DNA from: a virus
Taxonomy: Duplodnaviria > Caudoviricetes
Reading direction: 5' to 3' (one strand)
IMG/VR virus record: IMGVR_UViG_3300046170_000002
Coordinates: 1-51,151 of that record
Length of the DNA: 51,151 bases
A model generated the notes under the pieces. It was not told the DNA's origin. It saw only the letters and a program-made list of their open reading frames with translations, and did no database searches. The position numbers and the translations under genes are program-made. Below, one piece after another: positions 8,573-37,273 of this stretch. Numbering within the stretch: position 1 is the first letter of the stretch; every line of letters begins with the position of its first letter.

Positions 8573-9547
8573 TTAGTCAATTACATAGAATGCACTACAT
8601 AAAGCATCATCTCTAAGTACTTTCGCACCATAGACATGTAAGCCTCTTACTATATCACCAAATGATGATGGGTCTCTCAACACTTCAGTTGAAAGAATAG
8701 TATTAGCAGTAGCAGTTGATGAAATGTGACCAGCCATACATTTACCAGTAGCGTTAGATGTAGCAGCAACGTTGTTAGATTTGTACATGTCAAATCCTCT
8801 TAGTTTACCACTTGATACTAAACCATTTCTGATAGAGCCTTGTCCAGCGTTAAAGTCAACAGACATTAACTTAGAGTCAGCTTTAGCTAATTCTTCATAG
8901 AATGAAGGAGGAGCTACGAACCATCTACCTTCTTCAGGTACATTTTGTTCGTCTAATAGTTTAGCAAATCTTGCCATAAGGTCAATTGCATCTACACCAG
9001 TTCCGTCTGAACCTAATAGGTCTACAGAGTTAGTAGCGTGTCCTAATGTTGCATCAGCAGTTGCACTGTCTGAACCAATAATGTGGTCAGGTGATGAAGC
9101 TGAACATCCAGCAAACATAGTTGCTAGAACAGCAGCATCATATGCATCTTTAAGAGCATACGCAGCAGATGATGAAGCTACTTCTTTGAAGTTGACATGT
9201 GACATTTTAGTTTCAATATCATCTACGATGAATTTGAAAGCTTTAGCACTATCAACAACAAGAGTTGTTTCAGCATCAGTTAGTTTAGTTGCAGTTGTGT
9301 CAGAACCTCTTGTATAGTCAGATACAGAGATTACTGGTTCACCAATGATTTTTACAGAGTCTCCGTAAGCAGATATCTCACCGGCATAGTCGGTGTTAGT
9401 AATAGCTTCAACTACACTTGCCTTTCTGAAAAAGTTAAGAACTTTCTTAGAGTATATGGAAGGTAGGAAGAAACTATTAGTTTGTCCACTAACGGAGTTT
9501 GCAAAGTTTGCATCGGTATCAGTTGAGGGTTCAAAATATTGAGCCAT
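8573..9547 (-). CDS. Major capsid protein
   Basis: 324 aa; FLPSIYSKK, NTDYAGEI, GDSVKI, DIVRGLHVYG motifs of podovirus HK97-fold capsids; follows the scaffold and precedes a terminator. Confidence 0.9.
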   Translation of the reverse strand: MAQYFEPSTDTDANFANSVSGQTNSFFLPSIYSKKVLNFFRKASVVEAITNTDYAGEISAYGDSVKIIGEPVISVSDYTRGSDTTATKLTDAETTLVVDSAKAFKFIVDDIETKMSHVNFKEVASSSAAYALKDAYDAAVLATMFAGCSASSPDHIIGSDSATADATLGHATNSVDLLGSDGTGVDAIDLMARFAKLLDEQNVPEEGRWFVAPPSFYEELAKADSKLMSVDFNAGQGSIRNGLVSSGKLRGFDMYKSNNVAATSNATGKCMAGHISSTATANTILSTEVLRDPSSFGDIVRGLHVYGAKVLRDDALCSAFYVID

Positions 9548-11244: not shown

Positions 11245-11477
11245 TATATTTCCTCTTTTCTATTAATTGCTTCTTTAACCTGTAGGTCCAACTGCCCTAG
11301 GCGTTCCAGAGAATTCAGCTTCCCCTGCAACCGGTACATTTCCAATTCCGATGTTGCCACCACCAGTGCCTGTAACTCCAAGTTCTTGAGGTTGTTCAGG
11401 TGTTCCTTGAACGCCTCCCATAGGTCTTTGTTCCCCGTCAGGAGATTGAGCCTGTTCGCTATTCGTTTGTCCAGCAT
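11244..11477 (-). CDS. Small helical protein overlapping the portal C-terminus
   Basis: 77 aa with EMYRLQGK motif typical of the small gene that follows podovirus portals; stop overlaps the next ATG. Confidence 0.6.
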   Translation of the reverse strand: MLDKRIANRLNLLTGNKDLWEAFKEHLNNLKNLELQALVVATSELEMYRLQGKLNSLERLGQLDLQVKEAINRKEEI

Positions 11478-13488
11478 TTTGCATTCCTATTATTTGTGCC
11501 ATCATAGCTGCTTCTTCAGGGTCGTTGAGTATTTCATCAGGGTCTAAGTCTAAGCTATAAGCAAGTTCACTAACGAGTTTAGAAATCTTAACAAAAGGAG
11601 CAACAGCAGGATTTTGAGCAGTTTGTAAAAACATAGTAAGTCTTTGACTTCTAACTTCTTTTTGCATCAAGCTATTAGTACCTGTAGCTTTAACTTCTAA
11701 ATCACCTTTTACATCCAACTCGTCCTCTAGAAATTGCATGTTCCACTGGAAATAAGCTTCTCCAAGTGGCTTCAATAAAAAGTCATCAAGATTTTTGATA
11801 ACTGTTTTAATATTTAAACTTGAAGCACCTAGTAACATTGACATGCCAGAAGCAGTCCTTGTCATACTCTGTACTCCTGTTTGTCCGTGTGAATAACTAG
11901 GTATACCTGTTTGTTCATCTGCAAGTTGTCTAAACTTGTCAAACATCATTAAGTTTTCTTGTGATGTATTAGGAAACTTTAAACCGTGTATAGCTTGTCC
12001 GGGCATTCCAGCTTGTCTTCTAAAAACTTTACCCGGATATATTTCCATTGATTGTCCACCAACTAAAGCAGACTCGTCTACATCAAACACTAGAGAACCA
12101 GACATTGCTAAGTTATCTATAGCCATTCTTGCATGACCGTTCATAATCTGTTGTGAATCATCCATGTTTTCTGCTACACCAATACCAAAAAAGTTGTATG
12201 GGTTTCTTTCGTATGGGAAAGCATGATAAGGTATTCTATAAGGTGTAAATGGATTTAGTACTGCTCTTAATAAATAAGTACCACATGTCCATATATTTAC
12301 CTGTACTTCATCTAAGTCATCAACGCTGTCGGGTAAGTCAATTCCTACTTCTCTTGCATACTCTGCATCCATTATTCCCCAGTACTCTAAGACTTCGTAG
12401 TTAGTACCTACTTCTTCATCATATCTTGAGTCATCTTTTAACTGGCTTTCAAAATCTTTTTCTACGTAATTAGCACCCATTTGAATAGCATTACGTATTG
12501 CATCTTCGTCAAAGTAAGGCATGTTTCTTAACTGTCTTAGTTGACTTCTATTCATTTTGTGTCTATGAATTACATATTCACATTCTTCCATGTTAGTAGC
12601 ATTGGGGTCTGGATAAAAATCCCAACAACTTACAAACTCTATTCTAGGTACTCTAACTTCTAAAGGGTTATAGGTTCTGTTACCTTCTTCATCTGTATCC
12701 CATTTGTGAAGTTTTTTGTTAAAGTTAAATGGTCCTTTTACAATCCCTGTGCCTAGCAAAGCAGATTCTAAAAGAGCATTTCTCATTTCAGCATTACCAT
12801 TAGATTCTTCTATCTGGTCATGGATAAGTTTTTCCATTCTTCTTGCAGCTTTTTGTGCAGGAGATACTTCTAAAACTTGAGGGTCTGGACTAGCTCCGTC
12901 TTTTAATATACCTAAACTTTCTGCTTGGTCTTCAAGACTATCTTCAAAAATACCATTGTAATATGTAGCTCCGGGCTTTAAAGTTTTACCATCACCTTCG
13001 TAACCAACATCATATGGATTTACATTAGTGCCTTCTCTATTACCAATATCATCAGGCATTTCACCTTCAGTTGTTTCTAATCCGGGAATAGGATTACTTG
13101 TATCTAAATGTGCGTAGTCTGTTTCGCCTTCAGGTATTTTAGTTTCTGAAATTCCTATCGGAAATTTACCTGTACCAAAAATAACATCTACAAGTTGTCC
13201 AAAGGCTGCAAGTACTTTAGTCTTAGTAACTTTTACAAATACTCTAGACTTTTCAGATTCTCTAAACTTAATACTTTTAGCGTATAAGCCTCTATAGTTT
13301 TCGTATGCTTTTAACCAACGAGTCTCGTCAGTTTGTCTAGCGTCTTCAGCAATTGCAAATCTATCTTTAATAGTTCCTATAAGATTTCTTTGTTGGTCTT
13401 CTTCAAGAGTAAGCTGTACTCCAGACTCACCTTCAACTTCTTCGTAGATACTATCAGCGTTTAGAAATGTATTTGTATTCTCTGCCAT
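11275..13488 (-). CDS. Portal protein
   Basis: 737 aa after terL; LLGTGIVKG, DFYPDP, FFGIGVAE, TRTASGMSML motifs. Confidence 0.85.
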   Translation of the reverse strand: MAENTNTFLNADSIYEEVEGESGVQLTLEEDQQRNLIGTIKDRFAIAEDARQTDETRWLKAYENYRGLYAKSIKFRESEKSRVFVKVTKTKVLAAFGQLVDVIFGTGKFPIGISETKIPEGETDYAHLDTSNPIPGLETTEGEMPDDIGNREGTNVNPYDVGYEGDGKTLKPGATYYNGIFEDSLEDQAESLGILKDGASPDPQVLEVSPAQKAARRMEKLIHDQIEESNGNAEMRNALLESALLGTGIVKGPFNFNKKLHKWDTDEEGNRTYNPLEVRVPRIEFVSCWDFYPDPNATNMEECEYVIHRHKMNRSQLRQLRNMPYFDEDAIRNAIQMGANYVEKDFESQLKDDSRYDEEVGTNYEVLEYWGIMDAEYAREVGIDLPDSVDDLDEVQVNIWTCGTYLLRAVLNPFTPYRIPYHAFPYERNPYNFFGIGVAENMDDSQQIMNGHARMAIDNLAMSGSLVFDVDESALVGGQSMEIYPGKVFRRQAGMPGQAIHGLKFPNTSQENLMMFDKFRQLADEQTGIPSYSHGQTGVQSMTRTASGMSMLLGASSLNIKTVIKNLDDFLLKPLGEAYFQWNMQFLEDELDVKGDLEVKATGTNSLMQKEVRSQRLTMFLQTAQNPAVAPFVKISKLVSELAYSLDLDPDEILNDPEEAAMMAQIIGMQNAGQTNSEQAQSPDGEQRPMGGVQGTPEQPQELGVTGTGGGNIGIGNVPVAGEAEFSGTPRAVGPTG

Positions 13489-13491
13489 ATA

Positions 13492-15129
13492 TTAATAACC
13501 AAAAGTTGAATCAGAAGGACTAAACATATCTGATTTTATTCTTAACATCCTATCTTGTGGATGGTCCATTCTAGGTCTACTCATTAACAAATACCTTAGT
13601 GCATCATATGCGTGGTCTGCTGCATGAGTATCCACATCTTCAGGATTAGACTTAGAAAGAGGCAAAGCCTGTATTTCTTTTATTAAATTGACACATGTGT
13701 TAAATATTTGCAACCTAGGTCTTCCTGTATTATTATTCTTTCTCAGGTACTCATGTATTTGAGTCTTACCTGCTAATCTATTCTTATCAGCTCGTCTTAG
13801 TTTATGTCCTTTATTAACTAATATTTCACCAATCGTAGGACCTGTATAACCTGTCCTAGACCATGCTGCTGTATCAAGTACCCCAGCTATGGATTTTATC
13901 TCTTCCATTTCCATCTCTGTAATGGTGTCTCCGAGTGCTTCTCCTGTCAGACCTTTTTTGTATAATTCTCTATATATAATAATGGTCTTATCTTCAGGGT
14001 CGATAGCAGCCCAAAGACAGCAACTTTCTGCAGCATAACCGTAGTCTACTGCTTTAACTCTTTCCCACCACCCCGGTAATTCAAAAGGTGGTATGACGTG
14101 TGTTTCTGTCTCAAACTCTGCGAATGCTGCTCCTTCTGAGATATCCCAGTTACCTTCCAACAACTGTTTACGTTGTATGGCTGGTAAGGATTGTAGCATC
14201 CTTTCGTATTCACCGTCTTCAGCAAGGTGAGGATTATCCTGTAACAATGCTGGTATAAACTTTCTACTGAGACCGTCCTTACCTTCAAAACTTGTATTCT
14301 GTTCTGCTGGTTCTACGTATCTCTTTTTAACCCAAGCAGCACCAACACCACCGGGGTTAGCTGTACATCTTAGATAAGTCTTAATGTCTGGATTAGTAGT
14401 TCTCAAACGAGAAGCTAAATAGTTCCATCCAAACTCTGTGGGTAAGTGAGTTATCTCATCAAACCCTATCCAACTGTACGCTTGTCCTTGATAACGATAA
14501 ACATCTGCATCTCGTTCCAAGAACCCAAACTCAATCTTTGCTCCACTTGGGAACTGCCATAACTTTTCTACTTCTTTAAACTTAGCACCTTTAAAGGCTA
14601 TCGGATAAAGCTCTCGAGACTTATCTATAAGTTCTCTTAGTTCTGGCATAGACCTTCTAAGTATCAAAGCTCTATGCTCTGTTATGTGGCAGTATCGCAA
14701 CGGGTCTATTAACATTGCAAAACTTTTACCACCACCTGCTGCACCACCGTAAAGAACATCTTTCTCACCTGCAGCTAGAAAGTCTGTCTGTGGTCCTTCG
14801 TTTGGCATAAAAGCCACATGAGAACCAGTCGTATCTAAATGTTGTTGTATAGCATCAGGAAGCTCTTTTGCTTCTGATTCTGTTATAACATTAGATGTTA
14901 AAACTTTCTCTTCTTTGTCAAGTTCTTTCTTGACTCTAGCTAAACTTCTTGTTAGCTTTTTAACTTTCTTACTTTTCTTGTTAAGTTTATTCTTTGCTTG
15001 TAAAGCTAACTTAATGTCAGAAAGTTCTGAATTTTTTGGTCTACCGGGTCTAAGCCTTGGTGTACCGTCTTTCTTTAGTATATAACTCCCATCTGGGTTT
15101 GTCAAGTACTTTTTAGAATTATCTTCCAT
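13492..15129 (-). CDS. terL: Terminase large subunit
   Basis: Walker A YGGAAGGGKS, Walker B IGFDE, TANPGG, nuclease VDYGY and DHAYDALRY. Confidence 0.95.
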   Translation of the reverse strand: MEDNSKKYLTNPDGSYILKKDGTPRLRPGRPKNSELSDIKLALQAKNKLNKKSKKVKKLTRSLARVKKELDKEEKVLTSNVITESEAKELPDAIQQHLDTTGSHVAFMPNEGPQTDFLAAGEKDVLYGGAAGGGKSFAMLIDPLRYCHITEHRALILRRSMPELRELIDKSRELYPIAFKGAKFKEVEKLWQFPSGAKIEFGFLERDADVYRYQGQAYSWIGFDEITHLPTEFGWNYLASRLRTTNPDIKTYLRCTANPGGVGAAWVKKRYVEPAEQNTSFEGKDGLSRKFIPALLQDNPHLAEDGEYERMLQSLPAIQRKQLLEGNWDISEGAAFAEFETETHVIPPFELPGWWERVKAVDYGYAAESCCLWAAIDPEDKTIIIYRELYKKGLTGEALGDTITEMEMEEIKSIAGVLDTAAWSRTGYTGPTIGEILVNKGHKLRRADKNRLAGKTQIHEYLRKNNNTGRPRLQIFNTCVNLIKEIQALPLSKSNPEDVDTHAADHAYDALRYLLMSRPRMDHPQDRMLRIKSDMFSPSDSTFGY

Positions 15130-16363: not shown

Positions 16364-16551
16364 TAGTGTACCTTCCTTTCTTCTAATTGTATATCGTGTT
16401 GTAATTCTTGTATCTCCCCAAGAACCAACAATCCGTATTGTATTGCTATTCTATTTGCTTCAGCGACTGTATCAGCTTTAATGTATGGACCTATTGCAGC
16501 TCCATCTTCATTAACATGCTCAGTTATCCAAAGCCTAGTCATAGTCTGCAT
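16363..16551 (-). CDS. Hypothetical protein
   Basis: 62-aa ORF coupled to both neighbours. Confidence 0.5.
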   Translation of the reverse strand: MQTMTRLWITEHVNEDGAAIGPYIKADTVAEANRIAIQYGLLVLGEIQELQHDIQLEERKVH

Positions 16552-16963
16552 CCTCTGCTTCTATGATTACCGGTGCTTTATCAGGCATAAGAAAGATACC
16601 ACCACTGTTCATGTTGTGATTAATATCTACTTTATCTACTCTACTAACACCAACTCTATCTAATAACGTCTGTGCAGCAGTAAGTTTATTAGCTGCTTGT
16701 ACTATAGGTTTCTTAGATTCCATTATCTCTACAAGTTTAAAAGCTGCTTTAGGGGCTGAGTTAGCTAGTATCTCTTGAGTGAGTTCTAGTATCTCAGACT
16801 TTAAAGTCTTTACAACATGATGGTAATGGGAAGAATAACCAGCAAGTTCTGCTGCTTTCTTTGCATCACCACTAGTATTGACTAGGTGTTCTAGGAAAGA
16901 CTTCTGCTTATCTGTTAATTCTCTTTTAGTTGTTGTGTTATCTACACTTGGTAATATAGCCAT
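16535..16963 (-). CDS. terS: Terminase small subunit (probably leaderless, start MAILPSV)
   Basis: LTDKQKSFL...AKKAAELAGYS helix-turn-helix and LLDRVG; first gene of the late operon; ATG 7 nt below a -10 box. Confidence 0.7.
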   Translation of the reverse strand: MAILPSVDNTTTKRELTDKQKSFLEHLVNTSGDAKKAAELAGYSSHYHHVVKTLKSEILELTQEILANSAPKAAFKLVEIMESKKPIVQAANKLTAAQTLLDRVGVSRVDKVDINHNMNSGGIFLMPDKAPVIIEAEDADYD

Positions 16964-16969
16964 GCATCT

Positions 16970-16998
16970 AGTATACACATCGATTCTAAACTTGTCAA
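16970..16998 (-). promoter_or_regulatory. Sigma70 promoter for the packaging/head operon
   Basis: TTGACA (16998-16993), 17 nt, TATACT (16975-16970). Confidence 0.85.
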
Positions 16999-17023
16999 GC
17001 TTTAAAGTTTTTTTATGAAAGCC

Positions 17024-17052
17024 TTGACAAAAGTGGAATGCGTTGTTATACT
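17024..17052 (+). promoter_or_regulatory. Divergent sigma70 promoter firing into non-coding DNA
   Basis: TTGACA (17024-17029), 17 nt, TATACT (17047-17052). Confidence 0.8.
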
Positions 17053-17953
17053 AAACGTAGTGTCCCCTCCCGGGTCAACATATACCCACAACACCCTCAT
17101 CAAACAATTGACTGCCTAGTAGACAGGAACTTATTGTGGGCGAAATAAATACCTTTAAAGTCTTTAAAGATTTTAGAGTTTTAGTGTCGGGGCGTTAACT
17201 AGTTCTAGTTAATGACCATTATTCTAGAAAATGTATAACCATGCTATAGATATATAGGGTAGAGGGTATGGTCTCCTGCCTCCCCCTTAATAGATTTGAG
17301 ATTGCCTAAATTGGACATCTTCAAAACTCTATAACTTGTAAGGCTTCGGAGTCTTTGGGCTTTACCAGACTCTGTTCTTTTGGTAGCGTTCTCTTTATCT
17401 CTGTAAACATCTACAGAGCCTTACATTCAGAAGCTTCAGAGGATTCTTGAAGTTCTTAACGCCTTTCATCTTTAGCAAGACTATTGTCAAACAGATTCCA
17501 TGTTGCTCTGAAGTTTCTGCATTCATAGCCTCACATTCTTGTCAAACTTTTCACCTCTGCTTGACACTCTCTCAGTGGGCTTTTGTTCTATCTTTGTCAA
17601 CACTTATTATATCTGCATGGTATTTTCCATTGCAATTATCCTTTAAGAAACTCCAATCGTTAGACTAGAATGTAGTATTCACTCGGTTAAAGTTCACTCC
17701 TCTTCACTATCTGATTCAATACTCTAAAGCTTTAAAGTCAATCCTCCTAAGTCCTTGTTCCATTTTAGCCTGAGAAACTCAACTCTATAGTTTCACTCCT
17801 AATTCTATTAAAATCATAACATCTCCAAATATTTTCTAGTTTACAATGACATAAAGACTTTAAAGTGACAAATGTTTACAGTATTTCCTCGAAGACTCGG
17901 AAATCTATAAAACTTTTGTTCCCAAAACCTCACAAAACTCAAGCATTTGCAAC

Positions 17954-17982
17954 TTGAAAATCTTCATGTTTTTGTGTATTCT
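17954..17982 (+). promoter_or_regulatory. Sigma70-like promoter for the first two early genes
   Basis: TTGAAA, 17 nt, TATTCT; GGAGA Shine-Dalgarno and ATG 18001 follow. Confidence 0.6.
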
Positions 17983-18000
17983 TTAATATATGGAGATAAC

Positions 18001-18183
18001 ATGATTTTAATAGATTACTCAAACAATGAAACTATAGAGTTTCAAACAATTTCTCAGGCTAAAATGTTCACTGCAGACTTACTCGAAGTTGACATTAAAG
18101 CTTTAGGAATCAGATGTGAAGACTCATCTGACTTTAACCTCCTAGAAGACTACATTCTAGGGCTAACTCATTCCATTTCTTAA
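18001..18183 (+). CDS. Early hypothetical protein (60 aa, MILIDYSNNET...)
   Basis: GGAGA Shine-Dalgarno; lies in the right arm of the inverted repeat. Confidence 0.7.
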   Translation: MILIDYSNNETIEFQTISQAKMFTADLLEVDIKALGIRCEDSSDFNLLEDYILGLTHSIS

Positions 18184-18194
18184 AGGAGAATATT

Positions 18195-18467
18195 ATGGAA
18201 AATACATTTGATATAAACGCTTTTGACAAAGATAGAACTTCAAGCCCAGCTTCGTTCAAACAATGTCAAGCTATCGGCTACAAGTTTGCCAAGAAAGGTT
18301 CAGCTATGAACTGGAAACTTCAGAAGCAAATTACAGGCTGTCTGTATAGTCTTGCTAAAGATGAAAGACTAAACTTCAAGAAAGCTCATCAGCTTCTTCA
18401 GGGTAAGTCTCTTCCGAAGGTTTACCTCGATAAAATCGACCACTACCTAAAAGAAAAGGTCAGCTAA
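18195..18467 (+). CDS. Early basic hypothetical protein (90 aa, PASFKQ motif)
   Basis: AAGGAG Shine-Dalgarno; lies in the right arm of the inverted repeat. Confidence 0.75.
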   Translation: MENTFDINAFDKDRTSSPASFKQCQAIGYKFAKKGSAMNWKLQKQITGCLYSLAKDERLNFKKAHQLLQGKSLPKVYLDKIDHYLKEKVS

Positions 18468-18475
18468 AACCTCAA

Positions 18476-18511
18476 AGACTCTCTCGCCTTACAAGTGAGA
18501 GAGTTTCTTTA
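18476..18511 (+). terminator. Intrinsic terminator closing the two-gene cassette
   Basis: ACTCTCTC...GAGAGAGT stem followed by TTCTTT. Confidence 0.65.
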
Positions 18512-18675
18512 TGTCTGCATAAAATCTCAAATCTAATCTTAATAGTGAAATTACTTTGTAATTGCTCTTTATGAGGGCAGTCGACCACACCAAAGAAGTT
18601 AAATAAGTTAATTAAGTTAAGATAAAACTCGAGCTTTAAGTTTAAGTCGGTTGGGCTGGTAATTGAGGGCAAATC

Positions 18676-18810
18676 TGTGGATAACTTATCTAAATTTATG
18701 TATATCTTATGTATATCCTGTTAATTACTTGTGGATAAGTATAAATTATCTGTGGATATCCTGTGAATTTAAGTTTAAATTTAAGTTTGAATTTAAGTAT
18801 AATTTTAAGG
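18676..18810. promoter_or_regulatory. DnaA-box array plus AT-rich 12-mer repeats (oriC-like or injection-stop-like)
   Basis: TGTGGATAA at 18676 and 18730, TGTGGATAT at 18751; AATTTAAGTwTr x3 at 18766-18801. Confidence 0.65.
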
Positions 18811-18868
18811 TTGTGTTTAAGTCCTAGCAAACTTAAAGTATAAGTATATCTTAAGTTTGTTAAGACGC

Positions 18869-18896
18869 TTGACTTTTGCCAACGCTTCGCTAAAAT
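18869..18896 (+). promoter_or_regulatory. Early sigma70 promoter
   Basis: TTGACT, 16 nt, TAAAAT; shares upstream CTTAAGTTTGTTAAGA with the promoter at 19272. Confidence 0.65.
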
Positions 18897-18950
18897 GGGT
18901 GTCGGCTCAGCAGGGAACAAACCCCCGCTTAATTTTTAAAACAATCGGAG

Positions 18951-19238
18951 ATGATTATGAAAACGAAATGTAAAAACCCAAATGGTAAATCTAATATGCA
19001 AGTCATTCAAGACTCAAAATTGAGTGCTTTAAAATTTAATAGCCTTGACAAAGTTGAACGGTATATCAATGAGTTAGGCTATGTTTTCAAAGTAAGAAAT
19101 TCTGTTAAAGAAGATAGGTCTGTAATTTATAGACATAAGTTTCCTAAAAATGGACATGTGTTTCTTAAATCAACCTATGACTTTTTGAATGACAACACTA
19201 TGGAAATGGGAACAGTTTGGACGATTAGCAAATTTTAA
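18951..19238 (+). CDS. Early hypothetical protein
   Basis: 95-aa ORF with GGAG Shine-Dalgarno. Confidence 0.65.
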   Translation: MIMKTKCKNPNGKSNMQVIQDSKLSALKFNSLDKVERYINELGYVFKVRNSVKEDRSVIYRHKFPKNGHVFLKSTYDFLNDNTMEMGTVWTISKF

Positions 19239-19271
19239 ATATAAATATATACTTAAGTTTGTTAAGAACCC

Positions 19272-19300
19272 TTGACACCGACCGAGAAAGTTGCTATAAT
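19272..19300 (+). promoter_or_regulatory. Strong early sigma70 promoter
   Basis: Perfect TTGACA, 17 nt, TATAAT with extended -10 TG. Confidence 0.9.
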
Positions 19301-19354
19301 TTGTCGGTCAGCAACCAACCGAGACTTCAAAGTCTCATAAATATAGGAGATATT

Positions 19355-19468
19355 ATGGAAGAACGAGACCACTTAGAATTTTTAGATTTTATGACCGAAC
19401 AGGAATTAAAAGCTGAAACAATTGAAGCTAATAATGAATTAGCTGAAGATATTAACCCAATAGTATAG
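19355..19468 (+). CDS. Small acidic early peptide (37 aa, MEERDHLEF...)
   Basis: AGGAGA Shine-Dalgarno; 12 Asp/Glu versus 2 Lys/Arg. Confidence 0.6.
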   Translation: MEERDHLEFLDFMTEQELKAETIEANNELAEDINPIV

Positions 19469-19477
19469 GAGATAAAC

Positions 19478-19675
19478 ATGGCAGATATTAGATTACACAA
19501 AGTAACTAAAATTGAAATTAAAAAAGTAGACAAAGGTAATGGATATCTTTGTAGAGATATTGTTATTTATAACAAAGAATGGAATAGTGATTTAGGAGAC
19601 TATATAACTATGGAAACAACTTTAGATTTGTTTTTAGAAAATAAGTCTGCAACTAAATTAGTCTACGAGAAATAA
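19478..19675 (+). CDS. Early hypothetical protein
   Basis: 65 aa with AGGAGA Shine-Dalgarno. Confidence 0.65.
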   Translation: MADIRLHKVTKIEIKKVDKGNGYLCRDIVIYNKEWNSDLGDYITMETTLDLFLENKSATKLVYEK

Positions 19676-31687: not shown

Positions 31688-32663
31688 ATGAGCTTATTAA
31701 CAACTAGAGATTATTATAAACCGTTTGAATACCCATGGATGTATGAGTATTACAAACTACAAAATCAAATGCATTGGATGCCTGAATCAGTTCCATTGCA
31801 CACTGATGTAAAAGATTGGCAGGATGTCACACCTGAAGAAAAACATTTACTGACACAGATATTTAGATTATTTACTCAATCAGATGTAGATGTAGGTGCA
31901 GGATATGTTGACAAGTATATGCCTATCTTTAAGAAACCTGAAGCAAGAATGATGATGTCATCCTTTGCTAACATGGAATCTATACACCAAGATGCTTACA
32001 GTTTATTGTTAGACACTGTAGGTATGCCTGAAATAGAATACAAAGCTTTTGCTGAGTACGAAGAAATGTCTGACAAACATGATTACGTTGGGGAGTTTAA
32101 ACCTTTAAAATCTGATAAAAGAACTATAGCTAAAACACTAGCAGTTTATTCAGCCTTCACAGAAGGGTTGCAGTTATTCTCTAGTTTTGCAATCCTCTTA
32201 AACTTCCCAAGATTTCGGTAAGATGAAAGGTATGGGACAGATAGTTACTTACTCTATCCGTGATGAGTCTATGCACGTTGAAGCTATGACTAAACTATTC
32301 CGTGAGTTTATCCAAGAGAACATAGAGATATGGACAGATGAATTTAAGGGAGAACTCTATCAGATATGTAGAGACATGGTAGAACTAGAAGACAAGTTCT
32401 TAGACTTAGTATTTGAGATGGGAGACCTTCAAGGACTAACCAAGAAAGATATGTATGCTTACAATAGATACATAGCCGACAGAAGATTACTACAGCTAGG
32501 ACTTAAAACTAATTATGACCAAAAAGAAAATCCACTAGGATGGATTGATGAAGTCATGGGTGTTGAACATCAAAACTTCTTTGAAGGTAGAGCTACAACA
32601 TATATGAAAGCAGGTCTTCGTGGTAAGCAAGACTCTATTACTTTTACGGAGATAGAGAAATGA
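31688..32663 (+). CDS. nrdB: Ribonucleotide reductase class I beta subunit (~324 aa), split by one extra base at 32213-32216
   Basis: ESIHQDAY, TEGLQLFSSF, RDESMH, NFFE; removing one base restores FPRFGKMKG. Confidence 0.9.
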
Positions 32664-33003: not shown

Positions 33004-34740
33004 TTATGTAATTGTGTAGATAATTATCTCGTCTTTCTTCCCTTTTACCTTAATTGGGTCTAAATATCTAGTAGGTATGGTAGATTTCATAGCTGTGGTG
33101 TACCCAATTACTATATCCTCTCCTACTTCTTTAGTAGAACTCTCTAGCCTTGCAGCTAGATTAACAGCATCACCAATAGCAGAGTAATCAAACCTTGTAT
33201 CACTTCCCATATTACCGACTACTGCCTCTCCTGTATTTATACCTATACCTATTTCAATACCTAGTTTGGCTTCTGCCATATCTCGGTGGATTTGTAATGC
33301 TGCTTGGATGGCTTTGGTCTCATGTTCTTCAACATCTATTGGTGCATTAAAGATAGCCATCATTGCATCACCAATATATTTATCCACCATACCGTCATAC
33401 TTTTTAACTGCATCAGCTTGTATCGTCAAAGCTTTGTTCATAATCTCTGTAACTTCTTCAGGCTCTAATCGTTCTGATAAACTTGTAAAGCCTCTAACGT
33501 CTGTAAATAAAAACGTACATCGTCTTCGTTCTCCTCCTAACTTCAGAAGCTCTGGATTATCTTGTAGTTGTTTGACTTGTCTTGGGTCAAGGTAATGTTC
33601 AAATTGTTTCTTGATTTGTTGTCTAAGTTTGTATTGAGTTCTAAAGTTTAAATAGAATTGTAAGGTAGCAATAAGTGTCATACTTATTAGAGACCATGTA
33701 AAGTCTATCAAGATATTATAGCTTACAAAGTGATACTCCATATATCCCATAAAAGAGAACAAACCTAAGAATGATATAACACCCTTAGTGATACCTAGAT
33801 ACTTTATTAGAAGAGCTGTGAGTAAGCCTGAGACTATTAATAATAATAGTTCAACAAACAACCTATAGTCTGGTATCTGTGGTGTATCCATCAACATACT
33901 TTCTGATAGAGCTGCTTGTATTTTATGTGGTTCTAATAGACCTATAGGTGTTGCAAGTTGTGGTGATATACCCTTGGCTGTAAAACCTACGAACACAAAC
34001 TTACCTGCAACATTCATCTCAGTTAGTGTTGTTTGTGGTGTATCTACCCAACTAATCCATTTACGACCAAGGCTATCTGTGGCAATGGGTGGAATGCCTC
34101 TAACTCTAACCTGTTCAATTCCATTCAGATTTGTGACAATCTGATAAGTACGACCACCTCCTAGTATTTTTAAAACTTCTGTTCCAAACGAAGCAACCCA
34201 CCCATTATTAGTTTGTTGTAGTAAAGGGTATACGCCTTACTAAATTATCTACATCTACTGGTGCAGATATAGCACCTTGACTAGCTGATTGTTTTAAAGG
34301 TTCTATGTTCTCTAAAAAGCCTTGAGCTTTTGGTAAAGATACTATTGGTCCTTTGATAACTGTACCAACTGTCTTTGGATAGTTACTATTAGTTTACTTC
34401 TGGCATAGCTATAACACTTGGAGAGCTTTGTAAAGCTTTAGAGAAACTCATCATCTCCACCCATTCTATCTGCATGTGGGAATAACATAACCCATCCAAC
34501 ACCTAAAGCACCTGCGTTTATTATATCGTTATGAATCTTTGCAAGTGTTTCTCTAGGCAGGGGATATCCACCTTGTTCATCTAGGAAAGTTTCGTCTATG
34601 TTGAGGATTGTAAAGTATCCGGTAGGTTCTGGAGTTGTGACAAGAGCATCAAAGGTTTTGAGTCTTAGTACTTCTAGTGGTACACTGTTGAAGAGGAGAG
34701 GCAAAGTTAATAGAGTTAATAAGGTGATTGCCCACTTCAT
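33004..34740 (-). CDS. Membrane CHASE2-type class III adenylate cyclase (~577 aa), interrupted by three extra bases
   Basis: N-terminal TM, ILNIDE...YPLPR and DVDNLVRRIP sensor motifs, three TMs, cyclase motifs FTDVRGFT, DKYIGDA, DYSAIGDAVNLAARLES; extra bases at 34443-34446, 34391-34394, 34225-34228. Confidence 0.85.
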
Positions 34741-35848: not shown

Positions 35849-36479
35849 TGTCTAAAGTACTCAGTTGTTGTATGTTAAATGTTCTAGAATTGCCTGTTTG
35901 ATTTAACTTAAAGTAACCACCTGCATAGCCTTGACCTGTAAAGTTTAGAGTATTATCGTCACCATCTACATTTACATCATTTGTTGCATCAGCGTTATTG
36001 ATATTAAAATCAAAAGTGTTACCATCTCCACTAATAATCCAATCAATATCTGCGTTACTTGCTAAAGATGTTGTAGCTAAATCAAGTGTAAAAGTGTTTG
36101 TACCACCTGTTACATCTACATTAACATTAGAACCATCAGCACCATAAGTATTAGTAGGGTCTATCTGTACATTAAACACGTTAGTAGAACCATCAAACTC
36201 CCAAAAACCTACAAAGTTATCAGCAGTAATATCTCCTAAGAACTTATTGTTTGAACCTATTTGATTAATATCAATAGTTTGTGTACCACCATCTAAGTCT
36301 AGTGCAGTCATAGTACCAGCAATTGCATCTGCTCCACCTATGATGTTACCTGAACCTAACTGTTCAGCATCTAGATTAAACGTAGCACCTGATTGGTCTA
36401 TGTATATTTCGTTGTCAGCCCCGTATAGCAGCGATGCACTCGTCATCACAACTAGGCTTAATAATTTTATTTTGTTCAT
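35763..36479 (-). CDS. Secreted curlin-like beta-solenoid protein
   Basis: Signal peptide; Asn/Asp/Gly/Gln-rich repeats NEIYIDQSG, IDINQIGSNN, LNQTGNS; adjacent to csgG. Confidence 0.65.
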   Translation of the reverse strand: MNKIKLLSLVVMTSASLLYGADNEIYIDQSGATFNLDAEQLGSGNIIGGADAIAGTMTALDLDGGTQTIDINQIGSNNKFLGDITADNFVGFWEFDGSTNVFNVQIDPTNTYGADGSNVNVDVTGGTNTFTLDLATTSLASNADIDWIISGDGNTFDFNINNADATNDVNVDGDDNTLNFTGQGYAGGYFKLNQTGNSRTFNIQQLSTLDNDWLQITSDGSSGTICVIQNDGGTAVGC

Positions 36480-37273
36480 ATTTCCAATAGCCTCTCTCTA
36501 TTCCAATATTGATTATATTTAATACTCCAGTCTCTACAGCTTTTTGTAAAGCTATTGAAACACTTTCGTTCTCTGATATACCACCCTCTATTTCTACTAG
36601 CTCTGTGCCAGTCTCAATAAAACGAAATACATCCTGAGAAACACTTGTAGATAAAATGCTTTTGGATACTAATGTTTCCATAAGAACTTCACCAGGTAGA
36701 TACAGATACTAACCTTAAAGATATAGTAACTGTGTCTTCCCTAAACTGTTTACTTGTACCTATACCTAAGTACCTTGCACCAGAACCTCCAGATTTTAAA
36801 TTAGCTTCATAACTAATTACTCCACCTTGGACTAACAACCCTGCAAATAATAGTGGTTGCATCTTATTATCTTCTTTAAAATCTTTACGTGTACTACGTA
36901 TGAGTTGTCTTTCTTTTGTTAGGTCATCTAAACCTACACTTTCTACAACTCTAAAAAACTTTCCACCTGCTGTATGCTTAAAAGCTCTAATAAGAAAAGC
37001 TTCAGGTGCTTGTGTTACAGCAGTACTAAACAAAGCAAAGGTACTATTACTTCTTCTCTGACCTGTTAAATCTCTAAAGCTATTAGGGTATATAGCTATC
37101 GTTGGTCTTATTTGTGCTGGTGGTAAATTCCTTAACTCTTCTGATTGTAAATCTAATGTAGAACTAGACTGGACTTTTTTAGTTAAAACTAAATCTCCAC
37201 TCTCTTGTACTACTGCACAACTAGAAAGTAAAGTTACCAACAGGCAAAGATATAGTCGTTGTATTGCCATCAC
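36415..37273 (-). CDS. csgG: Curli secretion pore CsgG-like lipoprotein, split by one extra base at 36694-36697
   Basis: Lipobox LLSSC; FRDLTGQRR, FSTAVTQ, LTKERQLIR, GGSGARYLGIG, LRLVSVSTGEVL after correction, GYW near the end. Confidence 0.9.

Follow-up and report, generated by a model that had tools for sequence, protein, structure and literature searches.

The stretch of DNA analysed here (the window) is the whole of an IMG/VR virus record, IMGVR_UViG_3300046170_000002, which comprises 51,151 bp, is classed as linear and has a CheckV completeness of 97%; its gene sequences place the virus among the marine podophages of HMO-2011 type. An imperfect inverted repeat of approximately 1.2 kb lies where the leftward late block and the rightward early block of this phage diverge, and its right arm contains the first early genes, ORF1 and ORF2 (ORF, open reading frame). 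At the centre of the repeat, the first-pass annotation had described a fold-back in which a promoter, TTGAAA-17-TATTCT, is largely paired through its -35 hexamer and spacer and carries its -10 hexamer in a pre-melted internal loop, and had proposed that it acts as an Frpo-like single-strand promoter. The parts of the repeat are:

17291-17870, minus strand: left arm, a non-coding mirror of the promoter region, ORF1, ORF2 and the terminator (from the arm alignments)
17836-17845, minus strand: motif TGTAAAC(T/C)AG in the left arm, on the left side of the internal loop (from the alignments)
17848-17872, no strand assigned: left strand of the apex-proximal helix, pairing with 17944-17968, which contains the claimed -35 and spacer
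17871-17934, no strand assigned: apex, with a small conserved hairpin (ATTTCC...GGAAAT) and a variable second hairpin (from folds and alignments)
17935-18535, plus strand: right arm, the coding copy with ORF1, ORF2 and the terminator (from the alignments)
17954-17982, plus strand: promoter-like match TTGAAA-17-TATTCT, 9/12 consensus positions
17976-17984, plus strand: right side of the 9x9 internal loop, U/T-rich, just 5' of the ORF1 ribosome site
18001-18183, plus strand: ORF1, 60 amino acids, acidic, with ribosome-site GGAG at 17992-17995
18195-18467, plus strand: ORF2, 90 amino acids, a predicted five-helix protein (predicted local distance difference test score of the model, 81.1)
18476-18506, plus strand: intrinsic-terminator-like hairpin closing the ORF1-2 unit

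A strict opposite-strand self-alignment placed the repeat at 17324-18506 (69.8% identity over 1243 columns, E 7e-100), and a laxer alignment of the right side against the reverse-complemented left side extended it to 17291-18535, with nested inverted-repeat blocks extending to 17635 and 18191. It is the sole large inverted repeat in the window. The left arm mirrors the right-arm series, even GGAGAT and ATG; the mirror is disrupted by stop codons and by frame-breaking insertions and deletions (indels), the copy of the terminator has lost its local stem, and G and T are over-represented on the minus strand of the arm. The length of the apex differs among relatives, whose alignments showed indels and compensated stem changes there. 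No Rfam match at E <=1 was found in 16800-19100, and a blastn search of 17000-19500 against a phage collection gave no match.

Neither ORF1 nor ORF2 matched an entry in PHROG, Pfam or the ESM Atlas; the ORF2 model had no match in the PDB at E <=0.001, and ORF2 none among cultured phages by tblastn. Both genes were intact in 47/47 distinct relatives, and both proteins were well conserved. Residues 1-8 of ORF2 (MENTFDIN) were invariant in 18/18 aligned relatives, and its DNA at 18195-18218 was almost invariant, which hints that the nucleic acid is constrained in addition to the protein. The left arm is retained but non-coding. Its longest ORF starting with ATG had a median length of 25.5 amino acids, reached at least 60 amino acids in only four of 48 genomes and never 89. 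Two genomes (L004 and L010) have arms that are 90% identical, yet their left arms are interrupted by insertions of 3-8 nt, several of them with stop codons.

A search with ORF2 yielded 60 IMG/VR loci, a search with the small terminase gave 246 relatives, of which 80 were kept, and the arms were compared in 48 distinct genomes. Under strict scoring, 54 of the 60 loci showed a palindromic self-alignment of 614-1373 columns with 64.7-76.5% identity, and five further loci had an arm similarity with z scores of 34-67 against 100 shuffles. The repeat was thus present in 59/59 contigs with enough upstream DNA, the remaining one (L056) having no upstream DNA.

The two arms of a genome resemble each other more than they resemble their counterparts elsewhere. 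Arm identity within a genome was 0.76-0.90 in the 48 genomes, and the window's right arm was 0.65-0.76 identical to the left arms of other genomes; in the most distant genomes, the two arms were 0.80-0.85 alike versus 0.68-0.72 for the same arm between genomes. Between pairs of genomes, columns differing in both arms exceeded the number expected under independence (for L005 versus L047, 171 versus 120.7 expected, including 85 columns that had switched to a new identical pair), and these co-changed columns were scattered among one-sided changes, without long tracts. The 15-pair apex helix was paired in 92.9% of cells across 30 relatives, compared with 84.0 +/- 0.9% in shuffles, and 10 of its 15 pairs had changed on both sides, compared with 4.6 +/- 1.3; none of 500 shuffles reached the observed pairing or number of two-sided changes, and controls with slid partners were far lower. 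RNAalifold, run on a 411-column alignment of the apex that was spoiled by indels, recovered one helix only. General complementarity is maintained, without a fixed architecture.

The pairing could also have its basis in duplex DNA: the repeat may be an inverted duplication beside an origin and packaging region that gene conversion through the phage's recombination proteins homogenises, and it might form a cruciform, take part in recombination or replication or offer proteins an array of binding sites, with any strand bias a side effect. The repeat does have the small-terminase gene on one side and an origin-like cluster on the other, the phage has genes for an exonuclease and a gp2.5-like annealing protein, long blocks of the L004 and L010 arms are perfectly identical, and the absence of a fixed architecture would be expected. 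The 8-bp palindrome CTTTAAAG is moreover enriched in the window, with 11 copies against 2.5 expected (a number reached in 0/100 shuffles), six of the 11 falling within the 1.1 kb of 16799-17865. Conversion should, however, leave tracts, whereas the co-changed columns are single and scattered, and it should sometimes restore left-arm ORFs, whereas the left arms lack them as described above. Conversion and duplex functions are also blind to the difference between G.T and A.C, and do not predict the 6-fold, stem-specific strand bias described next. We consider this explanation quite improbable.

When the arms differ by a transition, one strand has a G.T or G.U wobble where the other has an A.C mismatch. 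Summed over the 48 genomes, there were 1314 minus-strand and 595 plus-strand wobbles of this kind; the minus strand led in 32 genomes, tied in four and trailed in 12, and a lead of at least 2-fold was held by the minus strand in 22 genomes and by the plus strand in one. The bias depended on context. In stems there were 872 minus-strand versus 135 plus-strand wobbles, among isolated mismatches 157 versus 29, and in mismatch-rich patches 244 versus 353. Read as minus-strand letters, differing stem columns had a G+T fraction of 0.657 in the left arm and 0.336 in the right arm, compared with 0.506 and 0.468 in differing loop columns. Regional deamination or mutation bias was ruled out as the source of the strand bias by these loop columns and by the four-fold sites of the flanking genes: because the latter had only 0.53-0.56 G+T on the coding strands, such a bias fails to explain the stem figures. 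Changes polarised with an outgroup clade fell mostly in the left arm; in L005 they comprised 40 A>G or C>T, six G>A or T>C and 31 transversions.

The predicted folding energies agreed in direction. Over the 1240-nt repeat, the minus strand gave the more stable RNA fold in 42/48 genomes, with a mean advantage of 79 and a maximum of 236 kcal/mol. Two genomes with very different wobble loads were compared under both sets of parameters:

L005, 61 minus-strand wobbles: RNA, minus -631.7 and plus -407.1 kcal/mol; DNA, minus -313.7 and plus -224.1 kcal/mol
L004, 5 minus-strand wobbles: RNA, minus -613.8 and plus -600.2 kcal/mol; DNA, minus -407.2 and plus -384.9 kcal/mol

The minus strands of the two genomes were therefore equally stable as RNA, whereas as DNA that of L005 was 23% weaker. 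As the wobbles cost nothing under RNA energies and are costly under DNA energies, the energies of wobble-rich hairpins favour RNA over DNA as the folding molecule, without proving it.

The lineage has retained some 600 bp of non-coding DNA that have no visible property except to mirror the first early operon and to pair in a strand-specific manner, and this suggests that a very long fold-back exerts control. The explanation that we tentatively favour, as a possible one, is that the minus-strand fold-back acts as RNA, in the form of a long, self-masked antisense hairpin. The mirror arm would be kept complementary to the first early operon on the minus strand, antisense to ORF1-2. A leftward transcript would begin in the interval that separates the origin-like region from the next early promoter, copy ORF2 and ORF1 in antisense first and then the G/U-rich mirror arm, and fold into a long, bulged hairpin of approximately 600 bp. 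In this hairpin, a long antisense RNA directed against the first early genes would be kept self-masked and stable, and the hairpin would control ORF1-2, and perhaps also transcription into the neighbouring origin. The repeat, its conservation, the joint evolution of its arms, the strand bias and the non-coding left arm are established by the comparisons above; we infer that the folding molecule is RNA, that a leftward promoter is used and that the hairpin has such a role. A formulation that spans both kinds of nucleic acid, in which the repeat is a kilobase-scale, strand-specific mirror cassette kept by compensatory evolution and serves either as an Frpo-like unit of minus-strand single-stranded DNA (ssDNA) or as an antisense hairpin RNA, appears somewhat doubtful to us.

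The fold-back of the first-pass annotation proved real and conserved, and also incomplete: it is the apex of the 1.2-kb repeat. Its letters were all present, with TTGAAA at 17954-17959, TATTCT at 17977-17982 and a spacing of 17 nt; the loop sides GTATTCTTT (17976-17984) and TTCTAGTTT (17834-17842) face each other, the surrogate minus-strand sequence reads TTGTAAACTAGAA, and pairing picks up again at AATAT / TGGAGAT. When a 191-nt core (17815-18005) was folded as ssDNA, the 9x9 internal loop was found in the minimum-energy structures of both strands. The minus-strand core had -26.6 kcal/mol (z -4.22, 0/200 shuffles as good) and the plus-strand core -21.3 kcal/mol (z -2.86, 1/200 shuffles as good). 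For 17600-18220, the values were -122 kcal/mol on the plus strand (z -20.3) and -130.3 kcal/mol on the minus strand (z -15.8), with 0/20 shuffles as good in either case. The strand that had been named, the minus strand, is indeed the template of ORF1-2 and, according to the wobble bias and the RNA fold energies, the strand kept foldable.

The promoter itself fared less well. TTGAAA-17-TATTCT matches 9/12 consensus positions, and 2.3 kb contained 13 such matches, compared with 7.0 +/- 2.8 in shuffles; taken by itself, the match does not exceed chance expectation. The -10 hexamer TATTCT is not conserved, its letters varying freely among relatives, and a site of at least 10/12 occurred at the claimed place in only 2/48 genomes (L005 and L006). 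The real promoters of the family are near-consensus, unlike this match. The surrogate -10 hexamer TAAACT, considered as an alternative, was rejected: its last T is kept in 13/30 aligned relatives, and its spacing from TTTAAA is 15 nt. TTGAAA-17-TATTCT with a pre-melted -10 is, on these comparisons, probably not a promoter.

The size of the loop was not constant either. The ribosome site was located in 37/48 genomes, 11 being dropped (L057 and L058 were mis-anchored), and every alignment examined had a patch of mismatches or indels between a conserved ATCTTTATG block and the ribosome site. An unpaired block of approximately 9 nt, the 9x9 size, occurred only in the window and L007. Elsewhere the patch varied in size and place and amounted to a bulge of 3-8 nt or a few mismatches, with gaps of 3-5 nt in L016, L040, L043, L044 and L046 and mostly paired positions in L008, L009 and L061. 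The motif TGTAAAC(T/C)AG on the left side was present in 29/30 aligned relatives (TAAACT in 13, TAAACC in 12 and TTAACC in four), L045 being different. A second TGTAAAC lies at 17874-17880, 35 nt closer to the apex, and neither copy has a counterpart in the right arm. The loop marks the position at which a conserved left-arm motif lacks a partner, next to an A/U-rich run that precedes the ORF1 ribosome site, and it may keep this run open; the motif looks more like a putative binding or processing site than a -10 hexamer.

These results bear on the possibility that the minus strand folds as ssDNA, as a kilobase-scale element resembling Frpo or a single-strand origin. The minus strand would be exposed, for example, as the lagging-strand template of a leftward fork from the DnaA-box origin, and the hairpin would be a quasi-duplex ORF1-2 unit, with the template paired to a surrogate non-template, from which host RNA polymerase transcribes or primes. 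The required polarity is there, the foldable strand being the ORF1-2 template; the repeat covers the whole unit from promoter region through terminator; an origin-like cluster lies 140 nt to its right, and a leftward fork from it might expose the minus strand; and an unpaired patch at the would-be -10 position has a conserved motif on its left-arm strand. G.T is the least harmful DNA mismatch, and even under DNA energies the minus strand of L005 exceeds its plus strand in stability by 40%. Tailed phages, however, introduce DNA in duplex form, and this one has a primase-helicase gene of its own; to our knowledge, no single-stranded entry stage exists in tailed double-stranded DNA (dsDNA) phages. 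The weak, unconserved hexamers, the surrogate -10 with its 15-nt spacer and the inconstant loop described above all tell against the proposal, as does the 23% of stability that wobble-rich hairpins lose under DNA energies and keep under RNA energies. The repeat also occurs without DnaA boxes in 23/48 genomes. We regard this explanation as unlikely, and of the Frpo-like promoter that had been proposed, the fold and the template strand stand, whereas the hexamers, the constancy of the loop, the size and the genomic setting do not.

The long antisense hairpin RNA that we favour and its other rival depend on the transcription signals on either side of the repeat:

16970-16998, minus strand: near-consensus leftward promoter of the late operon that includes the small terminase, back to back with 17024-17052
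17024-17052, plus strand: near-consensus promoter TTGACA-17-TATACT with TG, firing into the left arm (from a promoter scan)
18676-18809, plus strand: origin-like cluster with DnaA boxes at 18676, 18730 and 18751
18738-18767, minus strand: candidate promoter TTCACA-18-TATACT, 10/12 (consensus match only)
18802-18830, minus strand: second candidate leftward promoter, 9/12 (consensus match only)
18869-18896, plus strand: second strong rightward promoter, right of the repeat

A rightward promoter matching 11-12/12 consensus positions was found at the same place in 48/48 genomes, approximately 850 nt to the left of the promoter claimed in the fold-back, and a scan found no terminator-like site between 17024-17052 and 18476. 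From these sites it is very probable that plus-strand RNA enters the left arm. The intergenic region of phage HTVC115P, read from its bases, has the same back-to-back promoter pair, and some motifs are shared with HTVC115P. The leader at 17055-17310 was also considered as a structured RNA and rejected (z -0.86 and +0.71).

On the other side, the leftward promoter-like sites right of the repeat are a possible source of minus-strand RNA. Near the second strong rightward promoter, minus-strand sites of at least 10/12 lay at +835 to +1042 from the centre in 26/48 genomes, and leftward candidates of 9-10/12 were found in the window, L008, L033 and L047. Leftward sites occur in the left arm as well. 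The L033-L046 clade has a strong promoter-like site 346-379 nt left of the centre (TTGACA-17/18-TAGAAT, TATAAT or TATGAT; 11-12/12), and a 10/12 site at -264 to -286 was seen in the window (at 17635-17606), L007 and L009.

Plus-strand RNA starting from 17024-17052 might itself be the functional molecule, the left arm serving as a leader of approximately 900 nt that is antisense to ORF1-2. It would act within the same transcript, or in trans after processing at the apex, would mask both ribosome sites and would limit or time ORF1-2, with A.C mismatches and the unpaired patch keeping the self-repression partial. The strong promoter in 48/48 genomes and the lack of a terminator-like site before 18476 fit this proposal, and the ribosome-site blocks are among the best-paired columns. 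The mismatch spectrum can be read either way. Transversions group with plus-strand A.C and plus-strand G.U is rare, as if a weakening of plus-strand pairing were selected; selected plus-strand pairing should, however, tolerate G.U and purge A.C, and the opposite was seen in stems (135 versus 872). Were the pairing merely harmful, deletion of the left arm would cure it, and 59/59 contigs keep the left arm. An antisense plus-strand leader seems to us rather unlikely.

Public RNA libraries offered a further comparison. Twenty public runs contained part of the window, six of which were RNA libraries, and four RNA runs were compared as unstranded contigs. In one run (X19), a contig of 641 nt covered only the left arm (17255-17895, depth 8.1, eight differences) and another contig lay at 17086-17236, with nothing over 18015-18315 and 0.31 over 18316-18616. 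The two contigs would fit a plus-strand leader that starts at approximately 17059 and ends at the apex; they are strandless, however, and their ends are possibly assembly breaks at variable or shared sequence. Two runs (X15 and X17) had no cover of 17112-18616 with both flanks covered, and X18 had traces only; almost no cover of 17112-18917 was seen in three of the four runs, to which we give no weight as evidence. In X18, one contig of depth 2 joins the arms on opposite strands, from 17630 to 18194, at a conserved TTTCTTAAAGGA block, and is probably a template-switch, library or assembly artefact.

Several of these observations weigh against a minus-strand antisense hairpin RNA. The promoter conserved in 48/48 genomes faces rightward into the left arm and would give plus-strand RNA, whereas leftward matches of 9-10/12 arise 6.5-9 times per 2.3 kb in shuffles and a leftward site of at least 10/12 was not found in 22/48 genomes. 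In the RNA libraries, the right arm was uncovered in all four runs, and two of them had no cover of 17112-19218; the left arm was seen without the right arm, though a stable hairpin should show both or neither, in a signal that is unstranded and whose contig ends may be assembly breaks. The strand bias was absent or weakly reversed in 12/48 genomes, eight forming one clade (L011, L013, L018, L019, L023, L024, L026 and L050) and the others being L014, L015, L053 and L060. Isolated transversions were frequent (328, compared with 157 + 29 transitions), so pairing is not strictly kept, and mismatch positions were only weakly shared between clades (r 0.01-0.39). The same mismatch spectrum could also reflect selection against plus-strand pairing. 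Finally, HTVC115P, the closest cultured relative examined, has no inverted repeat in the head or tail of its record, and none of the cultured relatives examined has the repeat.

For the hairpin RNA that we favour, the closest parallels come from RNA-level control. The behaviour expected of a structured or antisense RNA, in which compensatory and G.U changes keep the pairs, was observed in the apex helix and in the stem wobbles. Plant and animal hairpin-RNA loci and young microRNA loci arise by inverted duplication of a target gene and need Dicer and Argonaute. Like them, the phage repeat has an inverted non-coding copy beside its target, tolerates G.U and bulges and retains pairing while its arms decay; unlike these eukaryotic loci, its target genes themselves are one arm, and we know of no Dicer/Argonaute-type pathway in the likely hosts. 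The lambda OOP and P22 sar RNAs are antisense RNAs of 60-80 nt made from the opposite strand of the gene itself. They and the RNase III hairpins of T7 share with our proposal the control of early genes at the RNA level, through antisense pairing or through internally looped hairpins where early transcripts begin, but in none of them is the antisense masked by a further, mirrored copy of the target.

Likenesses to DNA hairpins are of a different kind. The early promoters of N4 are hairpins with stems of 5-7 bp that are read by a virion RNA polymerase, and they likewise represent a podovirus case of a DNA hairpin proposed to serve as a promoter; in the present phage, the PHROG scan of 61 window ORFs detected no RNA polymerase gene. 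Single-strand origins (sso) of rolling-circle replicons and the complementary-strand origin of M13 are non-coding elements of 150-300 nt, and rolling-circle replicons have a Rep nickase. These elements are likewise imperfect palindromes, orientation-specific and close to an origin, which host RNA polymerase reads in the form of folded ssDNA. The partners of an sso, a Rep nickase and a double-strand origin, have no equivalent among the replication genes of the phage, which are a T7-like primase-helicase, a family-A polymerase (PolA) and a gp2.5-like protein that binds single-stranded DNA (SSB); the PHROG scan of the window ORFs gave no match to a Rep nickase.

Frpo elements, in the available sections of PMC11541004, are intergenic, span 50-350 bp, have recognisable -35 and -10 boxes and lie on DNA that enters as a single strand. 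As far as that account goes, Frpo and ssi elements share with the phage repeat a strand-specific imperfect hairpin whose folding strand serves as template for the genes downstream, an unpaired patch near a -10-like sequence and a position beside the first-expressed genes. The phage repeat differs in being 1.2 kb long (arms of approximately 600 nt), in spanning two genes and a terminator, in its weak and unconserved hexamers and in a wobble load that fits RNA energies better. It also lies in a tailed dsDNA phage with terminase, portal, head and tail genes, not in a conjugative leading region, and no transfer gene was named among the 61 ORFs scanned against PHROG.

Among the papers searched on HMO-2011-type phages and pelagiphages, none was found to mention such an inverted repeat, and either nucleic acid would, if the corresponding explanation is true, imply a form of gene control not described for phages. 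Were the repeat to act as ssDNA, single-strand promoters would not be confined to conjugation; were it to act as RNA, it would be a bacterial-virus parallel of the hairpin-RNA loci that arise from inverted target duplication. The bias between G.U and A.C in the two arms would, in addition, be a sequence-only signature that tells which strand folds.

A PHROG scan of the 61 window ORFs revealed a podovirus-like gene set, and the leftward late block, which also contains the tail fibres, included the following:

8573-9547, leftward late block: major head protein
11275-13488, leftward late block: portal/adaptor
13492-15129, leftward late block: large terminase
16535-16978, leftward late block: small terminase

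The large terminase was nearest to those of the Pelagibacter phages HTVC115P, HTVC104P and HTVC103P (66-67% identity), compared with 47-49% identity to other HMO-2011-type phages. The rightward early and replication block, which starts at 18001, encodes the gp2.5-like SSB, the T7-like primase-helicase, the family-A polymerase, the exonuclease, an endonuclease and ribonucleotide reductase. Cumulative GC skew has a local minimum at approximately 18,000, at the point of divergence. That the genome ends lie at the repeat was considered and found unsupported: five long related records are all linear with an internal repeat, and contig ends are not piled up there. HMO-2011-type phages and their relatives are a dominant and widely distributed marine viral group according to PMC9038755, the available sections of which make no mention of terminal repeats, permutation, termini, promoters, a replication origin or early genes. 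PMC12753301, as far as its available text goes, is concerned with other phage types.

In the origin-like cluster, 18676 and 18730 are the only perfect DnaA boxes in the window, and the box at 18751 has one mismatch. AT-rich 12-mer tandem repeats lie at 18766-18809. The cluster stands 140-270 nt right of the repeat, and perfect DnaA boxes occur at the same offset in 25/48 genomes. Repeats of a 9-mer were also observed at 18592-18625, within a wider origin-like cluster of 18590-18830.

Between the rightward promoter and the left arm, 17150-17290 is a nearly invariant non-coding block that may be a packaging or regulator site. It holds the palindrome TTAACTAG-TT-CTAGTTAA and GGGTAGAGGGTATGG, and similar motifs occur in the intergenic region of HTVC115P. 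The small-terminase gene has its listed GTG start at 16978, overlapping the -10 hexamer of the late promoter (16975-16970), and an in-frame ATG at 16963 falls approximately at the transcription start, suggesting a leaderless mRNA. Some genes farther along the early block appeared split. The small subunit of ribonucleotide reductase is represented by two adjacent ORFs (31688-32221 and 32223-32663) that match the first and second halves of phrog_86. Apparent splits were also seen for phrog_35576 (33004-34017 and 34438-34740, with a gap of approximately 420 nt) and for phrog_20175 (36415-36681 and 36689-37273).

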